Virus record (IMG/VR): IMGVR_UViG_2724679058_000006
Length of the DNA stretch: 7,016 bases
Source of the DNA: a virus
Taxonomy: Duplodnaviria; Heunggongvirae; Uroviricota; Caudoviricetes
Reading direction: 5' to 3' (one strand)
Below, in pieces: positions 2,080 to 7,016 of this stretch. The position numbers and the translations under genes were made by a program. The notes beneath the pieces were generated by a model. The model searched no databases and was not told the origin of the DNA. It worked only from the letters and a program-made list of their open reading frames with translations. Position 1 is the stretch's first letter, and each line of letters starts with the position of its first letter.

Positions 2080-2102
2080 AATAAAACGGGGCGCTCGGCC
2101 CC
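2080..2102 (-). terminator. Candidate rho-independent terminator after the S74 fiber gene (minus strand: GGGGCCGAGCGCCCC, then G and TTTTATT)
   Basis: 5-bp all-GC stem (GGGGC/GCCCC) with a 5-nt loop, followed on the minus strand by a U-rich tract. It sits between the stop at 2109..2111 and the next start at 2066. Confidence 0.45.
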
Positions 2103-2108
2103 TTAATA

Positions 2109-3149
2109 TTATTTAGACGCAAGCGCCGCCTCAATTGCAGATAATCTTTGTCTTAATTCTGCGTTTTCTTCTTCCAGTGCTGTTATCCTGTCGTCTGACT
2201 CTCTGGCTACCTGAACAAGCAAACCCGTTACGCCTGAGTAATCAACGGTATAGTATCTTTCTCCCTCTTCTCCATCAGACCCATTGTCCCCGCTCTTGTA
2301 CTTTATTGTGCTACCAACTGATTCAGGGATTGCATTAAGTGCCTCTTGCGCAATAACGCCAGCATAAGGCATACCATTAGACTTGAGACGGTAAGTATAC
2401 CCATTCATTAATCTGATGCGCTCAGTGGCATTATCAATAACCTGAATGTTTTCTTTAAGATCTCTGTCCGACACCTGGTCGAATGATGTAGCCTTGCATG
2501 ACCCGTTTATCTCAAGCTGATAGGTTTTATCTGGGTTCCTTTGTGCATAAAACAAAAAAAGCCCGCCATCATCCCTAATTTCATAAACAACTGGACGACT
2601 GGAATTTCCCCATAATAACGTCGACACACCAGAATACGCCGTACCTTGCGTGTTTAGTGTCATGGTCGACCCGTGATTAGCATATTTGATCTGCAATGAG
2701 TCTGTATTATCAAACTTAATAAGCGCGTTACTTCCCCGCACACCATACGACATGAGACAGTTCCCCATCTTAAGGTAACCATCACTGCCTGGAAAAATTA
2801 AAGTTCCTCCGTAAAGATCACTAAAGTCCCAAAAGATACCTTTTGTCCCGTTATGTGTGACGATCCTCGTCATTGTATCTTTAGTACCATCAATATTTTT
2901 TCTGGTATATATGTCACTATAAGCGTTTTCCGTTTCACCAGTCTTATTTGACAAATGCAGCTTACCGCTGAATATAGTTCCAGTTGTTGGCAATGTTTTT
3001 TGATCATAGATTACATTGCAATAACCATTCCATGTTGTTTTATTGTCTACATAAGATTTTGTTGCGTAGTTTCCTTGATCGGTTTTTAATTTACTAACAT
3101 CCGATTTTAGCGTTTTGATGTCATCAGGAATTACTGTTTTTGTAACCAT
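2109..3149 (-). CDS. Tail fiber/tailspike-like protein (346 aa) with C-terminal peptidase-S74 intramolecular chaperone (autoproteolytic) domain
   Basis: RBS GGAG 7 nt upstream of the ATG at 3147..3149, and only 12 nt downstream of the preceding ORF's stop. The C-terminal ~120 aa (residues ~227-346, nt 2112..2471) carries the S74 hallmarks: SDRDLKENI, then YRLKSNGMPYAGVIAQEALNAIPESV, then YYTVDYSGVTGLLVQVARE, then a terminal coiled coil ITALEEENAELRQRLSAIEAALASK. The N-terminal ~226 aa are Gly/Thr/Asn/Tyr-rich, typical of beta-rich fiber tips. Confidence 0.8.
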   Translation of the reverse strand: MVTKTVIPDDIKTLKSDVSKLKTDQGNYATKSYVDNKTTWNGYCNVIYDQKTLPTTGTIFSGKLHLSNKTGETENAYSDIYTRKNIDGTKDTMTRIVTHNGTKGIFWDFSDLYGGTLIFPGSDGYLKMGNCLMSYGVRGSNALIKFDNTDSLQIKYANHGSTMTLNTQGTAYSGVSTLLWGNSSRPVVYEIRDDGGLFLFYAQRNPDKTYQLEINGSCKATSFDQVSDRDLKENIQVIDNATERIRLMNGYTYRLKSNGMPYAGVIAQEALNAIPESVGSTIKYKSGDNGSDGEEGERYYTVDYSGVTGLLVQVARESDDRITALEEENAELRQRLSAIEAALASK

Positions 3150-3161
3150 TGTCTTACTCCA

Positions 3162-3431
3162 TTAAGCCCATGTCCTTACATGCTGATCTGTCGTAATGAA
3201 AGGCATTAAAGAAGATATGTTTTTACTGCTATCAACAATCCTCATGTTTACGAAAAAACCACCGCGATCAATGCCCGTACATCTTTCGTTTTCTGGCTCC
3301 TCGTAATCAATAATGCAGCCAATAACATCAACAAGAACCCCATTTTCTTCTTCAAGACTGAACAGGCCACTGTCATATACAATTGCGTTAAACTGTTCTC
3401 TGTTATCGAATCGTAATGTTATATCCCGCAT
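3162..3431 (-). CDS. Hypothetical small acidic protein (89 aa), translationally coupled to stf; candidate fiber assembly or adaptor factor
   Basis: Its ATG (3429..3431) overlaps the stf stop codon (3431..3433) in a TAATG arrangement. Its stop lies 12 nt before the next gene's RBS. No motif recognised; function unknown. Confidence 0.55.
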   Translation of the reverse strand: MRDITLRFDNREQFNAIVYDSGLFSLEEENGVLVDVIGCIIDYEEPENERCTGIDRGGFFVNMRIVDSSKNISSLMPFITTDQHVRTWA

Positions 3432-5789
3432 TATACGTATTCCTTAAGCTGCGTATCTGACAATGCTCTGTTCCAGAAACGGAGGTTTTTTATATGACCA
3501 TTAAGGTGTCGTAATCCTGTCGTCGTTTGCCCCCCGATTCGAATCACGGCTGCTTCACGAATATATTTCCATACTGTTTTGGTTTCAGTGCTTATATGCT
3601 TATTTGCAAATGAGCATGTCATGCCGTCAGCCTTAACCCTGAATCCCATAACGAGATCTCTTACTCCGCATGACTCATATACACGCCGGTTAGCCCCGCC
3701 TATATCGCAATACGAATAACCATCCTGACTGATAGTTCCAGAAGAACCAAACCCCATAATAAATGGGCCTCCGGACTGGTGATTTTCTGAATCAATGACA
3801 CGCGGTGCAGCATTATGAGAAATAAACCAGTTTTTATGGACTTCCACCATGAACGTAAAAGGCATGGTATACATATTTTTCATCAGCGGAAATTTACATA
3901 AATCTGATGCACGAGTCGCTGGCTCTGTTGTCGTTATGATAAAGGAAGTTGCACAAGCACCATACTCGAATTGCGGGGTGGTTACTTCTATCCAGTCACC
4001 TGTTGCAAAAGCCCCCACTGCTCTGTCGGCTGCAATTTGCAGCTGCGTACCAACCATTCCCCATTCTGGCAGACATTTCAGTGTTGCCTGAAAATATATC
4101 CATCCACTACCAGGGTCGATTTCAAAGTTTGCTGTTAATAGCTGGGCATTACCACCCGTAATTTGTAGTTCATGAGTCTGTAATGACAAATAGGCGTCAC
4201 AAAGGAAAGTGTATCCTTCCGAGTTATACCGTTCAAAACGGATACGTGCGCGAACATTGAGATCACTTCTTACCCTGAACGACGCGGTAACATACGGACC
4301 TTTACTGTACTGATCATCGCCAGTCACATCTATGCCTTTATTACCAGCAACTGTGCATATATTTCTCCCTGTTGTCGTTCCTGCTATGTCGCTTCCTACT
4401 GTGAAACGTCCATATTTAAACTCAAATTCATCTGTTGATGATGTTACAGATATACCACCGCTTTTATTCCACGCATCAGGATTAAAACTATTTACGAACA
4501 TGTTTGTTCGCTGATTCTCTATCAGCAAACCATATTTTTCAAAACGAGGAACGTTATTCCCTGCCACGGTAATATGCCCGGACTTATCAATATACGTTGC
4601 TGATGAAGCGCGGCTAAATTGGCATATGCCATTAACAGGCATTGTTATTTCATCACTGCCGATGGTTATTGTTTTATAGCCCGGGGCATACCCTGTTATC
4701 GCTTCCAGAGAATCATTCAAGGGTAGCCAGATATCAGGAAGCGGAGGGACTGAAGCAGGATCAGCGGCATCTTCTGCAATCCGGGCTGCATTCTCTGCTC
4801 TTGTTGCGGCTGACGTTGCTTCTATCTCGCTGGCTGCTGCTTTTGTTTCACTCGTCTTTGCGTTAGTTTCACTGGTTTTTGCAGCTTTTTGGCTATTAGC
4901 TGCCGCACTTGCAGAACCAGCTGCGGCACTCTCGCTTTGGGCCGCTGCATCCTGACTGTTTTTTTGCCGCAGTTTCGCTGGCTTTGGCATTCGTTTCGCT
5001 GGTCTTCGCTGCCGTCTGGCTGGACTTTGCGTTAGTTTCACTCGTCTTCGCAGCTTTCTGGCTGTTAGCCGCAGCAGTTGCTGATCCAGCTGCTGAAGTC
5101 GCAGAACCGGCTGCTGCGCTCTCGCTTTCAGCTGCTGCAGCCTGGCTATTTTTCGCCGCAGTTTCACTGGCTTTGGCATTCGTTTCGCTGGTTTTCGCTG
5201 CCGTCTGGCTGGACTTTGCGTTGGTTTCGCTCGTCTTTGCGGCTGTCTCGCTGTTTTTCGCGTTGGTTTCTGATTTTTTGGCTGCTGTCGCGGAGTTTGC
5301 CGATGCAGTCTGCGAGGACGCTGCCGCCTGTGCGCTGTTAGCTGCATTCGTTTCTGAGGTTTTCGCCGCGTTCTTCGATGATGCCGCTGCAGTTTCGGAT
5401 TTCTTTGCCACCGCTGCGCTCTGAGAGGCGGCTTCGGCGTTGCGTGCCGCTTCTTCCACCATTGCCTCAAAACGACGCAATGCCTCCGGCATGACATCAT
5501 CTTCCGTCATGGCACCGAGAAAATCATTCAGCGTACCTGGTCTGGAACCTTCATAGACGGTAATGGTTCCGGCATGTGAAGGCGGAAAACCTTCAACCAG
5601 CAGGGTGACGCTGTACTGGCCATACTCAACATCCATGCTGTAACGCCCGGCTTCATCCGGATTTTCAGAGGCCACCGTGTTCACCAGTACCGTGGTGCTG
5701 TTACGCTTTGCCTTCAGTTGAATAGTGCAGTTCTGTATTGGTTTTCCCGCACCATCTTTCAGCACACCTGAGATTTTTACTGCTGCCAT
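3431..5789 (-). CDS. stf: Side tail fiber protein Stf (~785 aa if contiguous): lambda-Stf-like N-terminus, Ala/Ser/Thr/Lys heptad-repeat shaft, non-lambda C-terminal LamG-like lectin-type domain. The frame is interrupted by a 1-nt insertion in an A7 tract (plus-strand T7 at 4959..4965), so it may be annotated as a pseudogene or as two fragments (4896..5795 and 3431..5500)
   Basis: N-terminus MAAVKISGVLKDGAGKPIQNCTIQLKAKRNSTTV..GRYSMDVEYGQYSV..GFPPSHAGTITVYE matches lambda Stf from memory. GGAG lies 5 nt upstream of the ATG at 5787..5789; the GTG at 5795 used in the ORF track is probably not the start. The two track ORFs (299 aa and 689 aa) are in adjacent frames and overlap. The first ~190 aa of the 689-aa ORF are Arg/Lys/Pro/Gln-rich out-of-frame translation of the repeats. 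Removing one A from the A7 run joins the frames seamlessly and gives ..ASETAAKNSQDAAAQSESAAAGSA.., parallel to the neighbouring repeat copy ..ASETAAKNSQAAAAESESAAAGSA... The C-terminus ..GHIKNLRFWNRALSDTQLKEYV resembles the conserved end of LamG_3/concanavalin-like domains. Confidence 0.8.
4881..5240. repeat. Imperfect tandem duplication (about 169 bp and 191 bp copies) inside stf; part of a longer low-complexity region (~4760..5405) encoding 7-residue Ala/Ser/Thr/Lys repeats (AAKTSET / NAKSSQT / NAKASET ...)
   Basis: Direct comparison of 4881..5049 with 5050..5240: shared blocks gcagcttt[t/c]tggct[a/g]ttagc ... gccgcagtttc[g/a]ctggctttggcattcgtttcgctggt[c/t]ttcgctgccgtctggctggactttgcgtt[a/g]gtttc[a/g]ctcgtctt. 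Copy 1 lacks ~21 bp present in copy 2 and has one extra T in its T-run. Confidence 0.7.
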
Positions 5790-5799
5790 ATCCACTCCA

Positions 5800-5827
5800 C
5801 AAAAAAGCCCGCCTGAACCGGCGGGCT
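5800..5827 (-). terminator. Candidate rho-independent terminator after lom (minus strand: AGCCCGCC GGTTCA GGCGGGCT then TTTTTT)
   Basis: 8-bp GC-rich stem (plus 5806..5813 pairs with 5820..5827), 6-nt loop, followed on the minus strand by T6 (plus A6 at 5801..5806). Lies between the lom stop (5854) and the stf RBS. Confidence 0.6.
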
Positions 5828-5853: not shown

Positions 5854-6453
5854 TCAGAATTTATAACCGACACCCACGATGAAACCGTCAGTGCGCCAGT
5901 CGCCACTGCCGGAGCCTTCATAAGCAATATCAATGGCCACGGATTCGGTCGGGTTAAACTGCACGCCAGCTCCCCACGCCAGAGACGTGTTGCTGTGGCG
6001 ATCGTCATCACTTCCGGTCAGCACATCGTGCGTTTTCCCCTTGTTGTCAGTTACGCGGAGATAATCCCCGGAGAACGTCGAAACACGGCTGTAAGCCACA
6101 CCTGCCATCGCATAAGCACTGAACCATTCATTCACGCGTACAGATGGCCCCGCCATCATGCTGAACCAGCGGTTACGCACTGAATCTTCATGCCAGCGGG
6201 TATCGCTGTAATGCGTTTTTTGCTCATCTTTGGCATTGGCATAACTGAATGACGTCACCAGCCCCAGCGTGTCCGTAAATTCATAACGGTATTTCACGTT
6301 AATGCCCTTCAGGTCATCACTGCCTGGCATATCAGTATAGGTCTGAAGATACCCGGCGCTTAGTGTGGACTGATGCTCTGCTGCGCTCGCTGGCGTACCA
6401 GCGGCAACCAGCCAGACTACTGCGGACAGAATAACAGCACATAATTTACGCAT
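5854..6453 (-). CDS. lom: Lom-like outer membrane protein (Ail/Lom/PagC family beta-barrel), 199 aa with signal peptide
   Basis: N-terminal signal peptide MRKLCAVILSAVVWLVAAGTPASA. C-terminus ..IDIAYEGSGSGDWRTDGFIVGVGYKF is identical in character to lambda Lom as recalled. KGINVKYRYE and AYAMAGVA motifs are shared with lambda Lom. RBS GAGAGG upstream of the ATG at 6451..6453. Confidence 0.9.
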   Translation of the reverse strand: MRKLCAVILSAVVWLVAAGTPASAAEHQSTLSAGYLQTYTDMPGSDDLKGINVKYRYEFTDTLGLVTSFSYANAKDEQKTHYSDTRWHEDSVRNRWFSMMAGPSVRVNEWFSAYAMAGVAYSRVSTFSGDYLRVTDNKGKTHDVLTGSDDDRHSNTSLAWGAGVQFNPTESVAIDIAYEGSGSGDWRTDGFIVGVGYKF

Positions 6454-6520: not shown

Positions 6521-7016
6521 TCAGCTGATACTGATGCCTGCGGTGGCTTTCTTCATCACCACAACCAGCAAATCGCTGATACTTGCTGTGGGATACCAGC
6601 CATTTACCAGCCATGCCGATACAGAAAATTCCAGTGTCATGACACCACTGCCTGCAGGCATATCAATAACACCCGTATATATCAGCGTATTATCCAGAGC
6701 CGTTCGGTTATAAATTTCAGCACCGTTTTTTCGTACTATCAGACGGCATGAGGAGTAGATATCAGTATGATCTTGCTCATGTTTAGCGCCACTGAATGCC
6801 ACCGCCGGGATAACAATTTGCCGGTCAAACGGCTGATCGTCATAAACCCTGACGGTAATGGTTCCTGATGGCCACCGCTCCGGTGCACGGGAGTCCCGGG
6901 GGAAAGCTTTGCCCACCGTTTTAACGAGATCGCCTTCAATCTGGTTCGCGGACAGTTTTCCCAGAACCCGGCAGTTCTCGTTAATCGTGACGTTGTTGAG
7001 CGTCCCGGAGTTCGCA
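6521..7016 (-). CDS. J: Tail tip host-specificity protein J (central tail fiber), C-terminal 165 codons; gene continues beyond the right edge of the window
   Basis: The frame is open to the window edge. Translation ..[151 protein letters not shown] matches the lambda J C-terminus from memory. The GTG at 6916 used by the ORF track is an internal Val. Confidence 0.9.

Follow-up and report, generated by a model that had tools for sequence, protein, structure and literature searches.

What kind of side tail fibre is encoded by a lambdoid Escherichia coli prophage in which stf is followed not by an intact tfa gene but by two other genes? This question is raised by the IMG/VR virus record IMGVR_UViG_2724679058_000006 (Caudoviricetes), a stretch of 7,016 nucleotides (nt) that was analysed at its full length and that we refer to as the window. 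According to the list of open reading frames (ORFs), the genes concerned are all read from the minus strand: the 3' end of J comes first, then lom, stf, orf89 and orf346. The side tail fibre gene stf (3431..5789, start ATG at 5789, stop TAA at 3431-3433), frameshifted in this copy, is followed by orf89 (3162..3431), which encodes an acidic protein of 89 amino acids (aa), and by orf346 (2109..3149), which encodes a fibre protein, distal or forming a branch, that ends in an S74 intramolecular chaperone. An earlier reading of the window by a model that saw only the letters and their ORFs, the sequence-only reading, had suggested a two-component or branched fibre, and this idea is supported both by our comparison, which spans five phage lineages, and by what has been published on homologues. 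We consider it fairly probable that the product of the locus is a modular side tail fibre in two parts, probably branched, comprising an Stf shaft, the C-terminal module of Stf, a tip plugged onto that module, and the orf89 product as a partner.

In the architecture that we propose, the N-terminal domain of Stf, which is of the lambda type, would fix the protein to the tail tip, and heptad repeats would extend it as a trimeric shaft. The end of Stf would be a horizontally acquired module of ~440 residues, the variable centre of which, a jelly roll resembling a carbohydrate-binding module (CBM), is likely a glycan binder, and the conserved flanks of which would include a tail resembling concanavalin A (ConA) or laminin G (LamG) domains. 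The 346-aa protein would be a second, exchangeable receptor-binding tip, mounted on the Stf module through a motif of 15 residues, and its S74 domain is predicted to fold and trimerize the tip before being cleaved off at Ser227. The 89-aa protein would be a dedicated partner of the upstream module, in the genomic niche of Tfa. Most likely it helps Stf to assemble or caps its end, rather than acting as an adaptor specific to the tip. The homologies, the shared motif, the gene order across lineages and the recombination breakpoints come from this analysis, and the presence of both large proteins in the virions of homologous phages is taken from the literature; the physical contact between Stf and the tip, the binding of glycans and the role of orf89 are inferred.

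The upstream fibre and its C-terminal module

Stf matches phrog_1419 over its full length (residue numbers of Stf refer to the intact 785-aa allele of FDAARGOS_497). At its N terminus is the tail-attachment domain phage_tail_N (5394..5789; Pfam PF08400, E 4.7e-67), and residues 3-95 match the PDB chains 9e7m/9mgh, 'Tail fiber protein', with an E value of 7e-49. The shaft (4838..5289) consists of Ala/Ser/Thr-rich repeats, for which Tandem Repeats Finder gives periods of 21 nt and 42 nt, making them true heptads, as well as a 189-nt duplication. Near 4650-4800, the guanine-plus-cytosine (GC) profile drops from ~0.55 to ~0.40-0.45, and this drop falls where the C-terminal module starts. These results bear out the description given by the sequence-only reading, in which a lambda attachment domain is joined through heptad repeats to a foreign distal part of lower GC content. 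The gene also has the position of a lambda-type stf, following J and lom immediately within the late operon.

The module comprises residues 349-785 (3434..4744), opens with PLPD.W.P.NDSL and ends with RIGGQT..G.RHL.GH..N.R.W, both of them invariant motifs. It is 32-47% identical to the corresponding part of the upstream fibres of T5-, 9g-, P1- and HK97-like phages. Its variable centre (3908..4525) scores above the cut-off of NCBIfam GTA_spike_fiber and has a beta jelly-roll fold, as expected of a CBM-like domain. Used as a profile, this centre matches the head spike fibre Rcc01080 of the gene transfer agent RcGTA (PDB 6tb9) with an E value of 1.6e-10, so that the central jelly rolls of the two proteins are homologous. 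Unlike the fibre discussed here, Rcc01080 is a head-mounted, capsule-binding spike, and we know of no small partner or plug-bearing tip in RcGTA.

The plug motif and the cassette in other phages

The product of orf346 matches phrog_4563 over its full length. That it carries an S74 chaperone, a point on which the sequence-only reading depended, was borne out by Pfam Peptidase_S74, which matches residues 227-278 of 346 with 47.4 bits against a cut-off of 22. The S74 region (2112..2471) starts at S227-D-R-D-L-K, part of S227-D-R-D-L-K-E-N-I, which, from what we know of endoNF and T5 pb1, we take to be the cleavage motif; the mature tip is predicted to comprise ~226-227 aa.

The 15 N-terminal residues of the same protein (MVTKTVIPDDIKTLK; 3105..3149) form the motif that we call the plug. 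With the consensus M..T.IP.DI..LK, it opens the downstream fibre in all 16 of the 16 three-gene loci, 8-12 nt after the small gene, and past it the downstream fibres diverge completely. The motif is also a recombination crossover point: DNA homology to PhiR55_1 stops at window position ~3106 and homology to JenP1 starts at ~3113, the end of the motif codons. Breakpoints at this place show the tip body to be the unit of exchange. Tips of the siphoviruses end in S74, and that of the P1-like phages has a Gp34_trimer domain, with a separate Caudo_TAP chaperone following. Across loci, three elements are conserved, namely the upstream C-terminal module, the small protein and the 15-residue motif of the downstream fibre.

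The cassette is not confined to the window. The sequence-only reading had suggested seeking it in other lambdoid prophages. The order of upstream fibre, ORF of 88-93 aa and downstream fibre was found in PhiR11_1, PhiR47_1, PhiR55_1 and Tritos, all viable temperate lambdoid phages, and ~75 complete Escherichia coli genomes carry the cassette at a coverage of at least 80%. PhiR11_1, PhiR47_1 and PhiR55_1 are plaque-forming phages, and PhiR11_1 is 94% identical to the window at the cassette, with stf intact. The same three-gene order is present in the Tequintavirus phages IrisVonRoten and AKFV33, in the virulent Queuovirinae JenP1 and VogelGryff (9g-like), in P1-like phage-plasmids, where the cassette lies inside the Cin-invertible segment, and in an HK97-like prophage. 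The sequence-only reading did not recognise the combination as described, and this part of it has to be abandoned, given that the order exists in deposited phages and in PHROGs and that a two-protein fibre was proposed in 2012 for AKFV33, whose ORF137 resembles side tail fibres of E. coli prophages and was found in virions (PMC3326045). The window locus is a lambdoid member of a cassette already catalogued, and described in concept for T5-like relatives, and it is frameshifted as sequenced.

JenP1 shares the whole arrangement: its upstream fibre has phage_tail_N and the C-terminal module, the small ORF has 92 aa, and the S74 protein has 351 aa. Its tip, an 'endosialidase-like' protein, is 93% identical to orf346, while its upstream fibre and small protein are only 39% and 29% identical to those of the window, suggesting that only the tip body was exchanged recently. 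Unlike the window prophage, JenP1, VogelGryff and their 9g-like relatives are virulent.

The lateral fibre of IrisVonRoten (Bas32) has the same order and spacing as the window cassette, with Gp22 as the proximal fibre, Gp23 as the small protein and Gp24 as an S74-ended, T-shaped receptor-binding protein (RBP). Residues 131-785 of Stf are 45% identical to Gp22 over 745 alignment columns, the small proteins are 33% identical, and identity between the tips is 71% over their first 17 residues; the window has a Gp22-homologous upstream fibre, an ORF of 88-93 aa in between and an N-terminal anchor motif downstream, as a locus of this type should. In the published AlphaFold-Multimer model, the tip is mounted on the proximal fibre, Gp22 carrying the S74-ended Gp24, and the galectin-like C-terminal domain of Gp22 may be an extra receptor-binding domain (PMC11990801, BASEL 2025). 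In contrast to IrisVonRoten, whose attachment domain is of the T5 Ltf type, the window has one of the lambda Stf type (phage_tail_N); the tip bodies are unrelated, with 346 aa in the window and 574 aa with two receptor-binding domains in IrisVonRoten; and the window copy belongs to a temperate lambdoid prophage and is frameshifted.

Branched fibres are also known from DT57C and DT571/2, in which the fibre is L-shaped. As we propose for the window, one fibre protein carries another (LtfA carries LtfB in DT57C; PMC4728585, PMC10713586), the RBPs are S74-ended and the lateral fibres function in the recognition of O-antigen or glycans. The comparison was made by description, and the two papers describe ltfA and ltfB only, leaving a small ORF unmentioned. 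DT57C differs further in that LtfA is itself S74-ended and in that no match to the plug motif was seen there, only residues 27-70 of the IrisVonRoten tip matching, inside ltfA. In SIA3lw, virions contain both large fibre proteins (PMC12752171).

The P1-like and HK97-like loci have features of their own. In the former, the fibre-end module, a 92-aa small protein and a plug-bearing tip of 365 aa lie in the C segment, adjoining two Caudo_TAP genes, and three contigs show the Cin segment in different orientations; here the socket-and-plug module appears to be combined with host-range switching by DNA inversion. In the HK97-like prophages, the module lies between head-completion and tail-tube genes, a position that suggests a neck or head fibre. 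In the public gene calls for these prophages, the S74 gene begins too far downstream, at 4341 or 4650. It should begin at 4290, which includes the MASVTVIPTDINNLK motif and leaves 10 nt between it and the small gene.

The small protein and the partner of the tip

The product of orf89 (10.3 kDa, pI 4.4) belongs to phrog_1361, a family annotated 'unknown function'. As the sequence-only reading anticipated, it has no match in Pfam or NCBIfam, nor is it a Tfa-family chaperone, to which that reading would have had to yield: it lacks the signature of Caudo_TAP (PF02413, about 170-200 aa). It is modelled as a small alpha/beta sandwich, with a predicted score in the local distance difference test (pLDDT) of 80.6 and a predicted template modelling score (pTM) of 0.70, and structural comparison of this model returned no informative neighbour. 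The family holds 135 clusters, all named 'hypothetical', and identities across phage lineages are 28-40%; in the cassette loci the length ranges from 88 to 93 aa, and a C-terminal R-x-W-A and several core residues are invariant. An alignment query was needed to recover the family, a word-index search with the single sequence giving four fragments only. An exhaustive representative search yielded few relatives, and three of its hits, two repetitive Ig-/cadherin-like proteins and one frameshifted junk translation, were judged spurious.

Comparison with lambda shows where this protein stands. As in lambda Stf/Tfa, the upstream protein has the lambda N-terminal attachment domain, its gene follows J and lom, and a small ORF is translationally coupled downstream. 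Unlike in lambda, the distal half of Stf is unrelated, the ORF that comes next has 89 codons and no Caudo_TAP signature, and there is a third fibre gene. Only two of the three genes stand together in one clade of lambdoid prophages: a fibre of 595-598 aa with the same module is followed by an 88-aa protein and then by the prophage end or an integrase, without a tip. The existence of such loci indicates that the small protein goes with the upstream fibre, in the place that Tfa takes after lambda stf. Moreover, since tips bring their own chaperone, either S74 or a separate Caudo_TAP protein, orf89 is unlikely to be the chaperone of the tip. We favour an assembly or partner role at the end of Stf, where the small protein may be a generic assembly factor for a conserved scaffold or else a structural cap.

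The sequence-only reading had instead cast orf89 as an adaptor, and a structural hinge that stays in the virion between the C terminus of Stf and the N-terminal motif of the tip, much like the small connector in the T4 long tail fibre, would fit its place exactly between the two fibre genes in every case, coupled to the upstream one and ending 8-12 nt ahead of the downstream one, as well as the invariant R-x-W-A C terminus, the invariant core residues and the compact, confidently folded domain. Near-identical small proteins nevertheless occur where the late operon ends without a tip gene, and the AKFV33 protein, although its locus has three genes, shares 56-58% identity with proteins of two-gene loci, so that its sequence does not follow the presence of a tip; nor has the small protein been reported from virions, the published gels having sampled nothing under 19 kDa. 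For these reasons we regard an adaptor as unlikely and prefer a partner of Stf. A different arrangement, in which the 346-aa protein is an independent second fibre placed elsewhere on the tail, for example on J or the tip complex, and merely co-transcribed with stf, strikes us as very improbable. It would draw on the fact that orf346 carries its own folding chaperone, on the frequent clustering of fibre genes whose products make no contact, and on the low-contour LtfB density near the tail tip of DT57C, which leaves the geometry ambiguous, but it would have to explain why one N-terminal motif recurs in lambda-, T5-, 9g-, P1- (myovirus) and HK97-like contexts with unrelated baseplates or tips, and why no plug motif without the upstream module and small protein was seen among the loci compared. 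That phages with unrelated tail tips and baseplates share the motif, and never without the upstream module, suggests that the attachment partner of the tip travels inside this module.

Several observations weigh against the two-part fibre as we have drawn it. The Laminin_G_3 (ConA-like) match at the extreme C terminus of Stf (3446..3592, the last ~49 residues) reaches 19.6-20.9 bits against a Pfam cut-off of 27.6 and covers profile positions 103-150 only; such sub-threshold matches recur in 24 of 31 homologues, and the LamG-like end put forward by the sequence-only reading falls short on the score. An AlphaFold2 model of the C-terminal 445 aa of Stf is confident for the central jelly roll only, with a pLDDT of ~30 for residues 614-785. 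The small protein also co-varies only loosely with its neighbours: in the two-gene loci, small proteins that are 83-90% identical accompany fibres whose CBM parts are 23-32% identical, and between Tritos and the P1-like phages the CBM parts are 97% and the small proteins 46% identical. A Mantel-type test of the small protein against parts of the upstream module gave weak correlations (r 0.24-0.34) and located no interface. Such loose co-variation makes a specificity-matched chaperone unlikely. We found no surface for tip docking that sets three-gene loci apart, the two-gene loci sharing the conserved flanks of the module, and Stf is the partner that we infer for the tip, which could instead bind orf89 or another part of the virion.

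Taken together with the fibre-end module and the 15-residue motif, the 88-93-aa proteins of phrog_1361 could constitute a new class of tail-fibre assembly or connector proteins unrelated to Tfa, forming a universal socket-and-plug connector that mounts any plug-bearing tip on lambda-, T5-, 9g-, P1- and HK97-like fibres; we put this forward tentatively, as the broadest reading of the comparison. The small ORF is not addressed in the papers on AKFV33, DT57C, IrisVonRoten (BASEL 2025) or SIA3lw. To our knowledge, this small partner protein, conserved across sipho- and myoviruses, has never been studied.

State of the window copy and its surroundings

In the window, stf is broken in two, with 299 aa in one frame (4896-5795) and 689 aa in the other (3431-5500), a break that the sequence-only reading had missed. 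Alignment with FDAARGOS_497 revealed one difference in 3.8 kb, an extra A in a homopolymer (4959..4965) that has seven A residues (A7) here and six (A6) in matching genomes; the A6 allele of FDAARGOS_497 gives the intact 785-aa Stf. The window copy thus lacks the intact reading frame of a lambda-type Stf and, with stf carrying a +1 frameshift, should be unable to make the fibre at a normal level. The view that the three genes are one co-translated unit that includes a full Stf does not hold for this copy, as full-length Stf is not producible from the gene as sequenced. Among 970 complete E. coli genomes that match, not one has A7 at this run, which points to a strain-specific mutation or a homopolymer sequencing error and not to a conserved recoding site. 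Programmed frameshifting or phase variation at the run was considered and rejected, given that A7 occurs in no other genome and that a +1 correction would be needed. In the RefSeq/PGAP annotation of FDAARGOS_497, the intact stf is given as a partial pseudogene (12062-12428) and a 'phage head spike fiber domain-containing protein' (12440-14419); the two pieces share a frame that no stop interrupts between them, and the split looks like an artefact.

Whether the window cassette is a decaying, non-functional remnant, with both the stf frameshift and the stop in a downstream ORF real and the prophage domesticated at the DLP12/appY site, is in our judgement evenly balanced. A7 is present here and in none of the 970 genomes, the fourth ORF has an internal TAG both here and in RefSeq records, and a fragment of IS1 and a remnant of Tfa are close by. 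On the other hand, single-base differences in homopolymers are also the commonest sequencing or assembly error, and the rest of the 3.8 kb is identical to intact alleles. In either case, decay would concern the state of the window copy only and not the nature of the module, for which we retain the two-part fibre as the preferred reading.

The junctions of the cassette are as the sequence-only reading described them: stf and orf89 overlap at TAATG, the spacer of 12 nt between orf89 and orf346 was confirmed and contains GGAG, and the only convincing hairpin among the cassette junctions, a terminator-like GC hairpin (2088..2102), comes directly after orf346. Its three-gene boundary was incomplete, as two further elements flank the cassette, also on the minus strand. 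An ORF of 97 codons (1773-2066), interrupted by an internal TAG (1935-1937), lies between orf346 and a C-terminal Tfa remnant of 37 codons (~1643-1753; partial in the RefSeq annotation). Although no intact Tfa gene follows, as had been claimed, this remnant had been missed; possibly it survives from an earlier stf-tfa arrangement at the DLP12/appY site. The product of the 97-codon ORF is a small hydrophobic protein (phrog_1443) with no Pfam match. The internal stop is present in the window and in RefSeq records, and uninterrupted versions of the ORF occur in PhiR11_1, Tritos, phage 21 and many Lambda-like isolates; being a common lambdoid gene after fibre genes, as in phage 21 and many such isolates, it was rejected as a part of the module.

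Upstream of stf, and on the same strand, lie lom (5854-6453) and the 3' end of J, with an Ig_GpJ_C domain and its stop at 6521. Between lom and the stf start is a strong terminator-like hairpin (5806..5827; GC stem and T-run), past which expression of stf would need read-through, presumably by Q-antiterminated late transcription. At the other end of the window, an AT-rich spacer separates the Tfa remnant from appY (348-1097), which adjoins an IS1 InsB fragment (18-311); this position of IS1 next to appY is common to only a few complete genomes, e.g. strain EC11. In FDAARGOS_497, the identical region sits at the appY-ompT-envY site, after a complete set of lambda-type tail genes.

For the strain itself, the message is a smaller one, that of a prophage side fibre gene broken, or mis-sequenced, at a homopolymer. 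Models of multi-protein fibres have a gap that would be closed by knowing whether the small protein is a chaperone or a component of the virion. The first step in recognising a host is determined by lateral fibres, and the plug motif, with the crossover at its end, would explain how tips are traded between temperate lambdoid prophages and virulent phages; the window copy, with a tip 93% identical to that of the lytic phage JenP1, illustrates such trading. By the same token, the plug motif marks a natural splice point for the engineering of host range.

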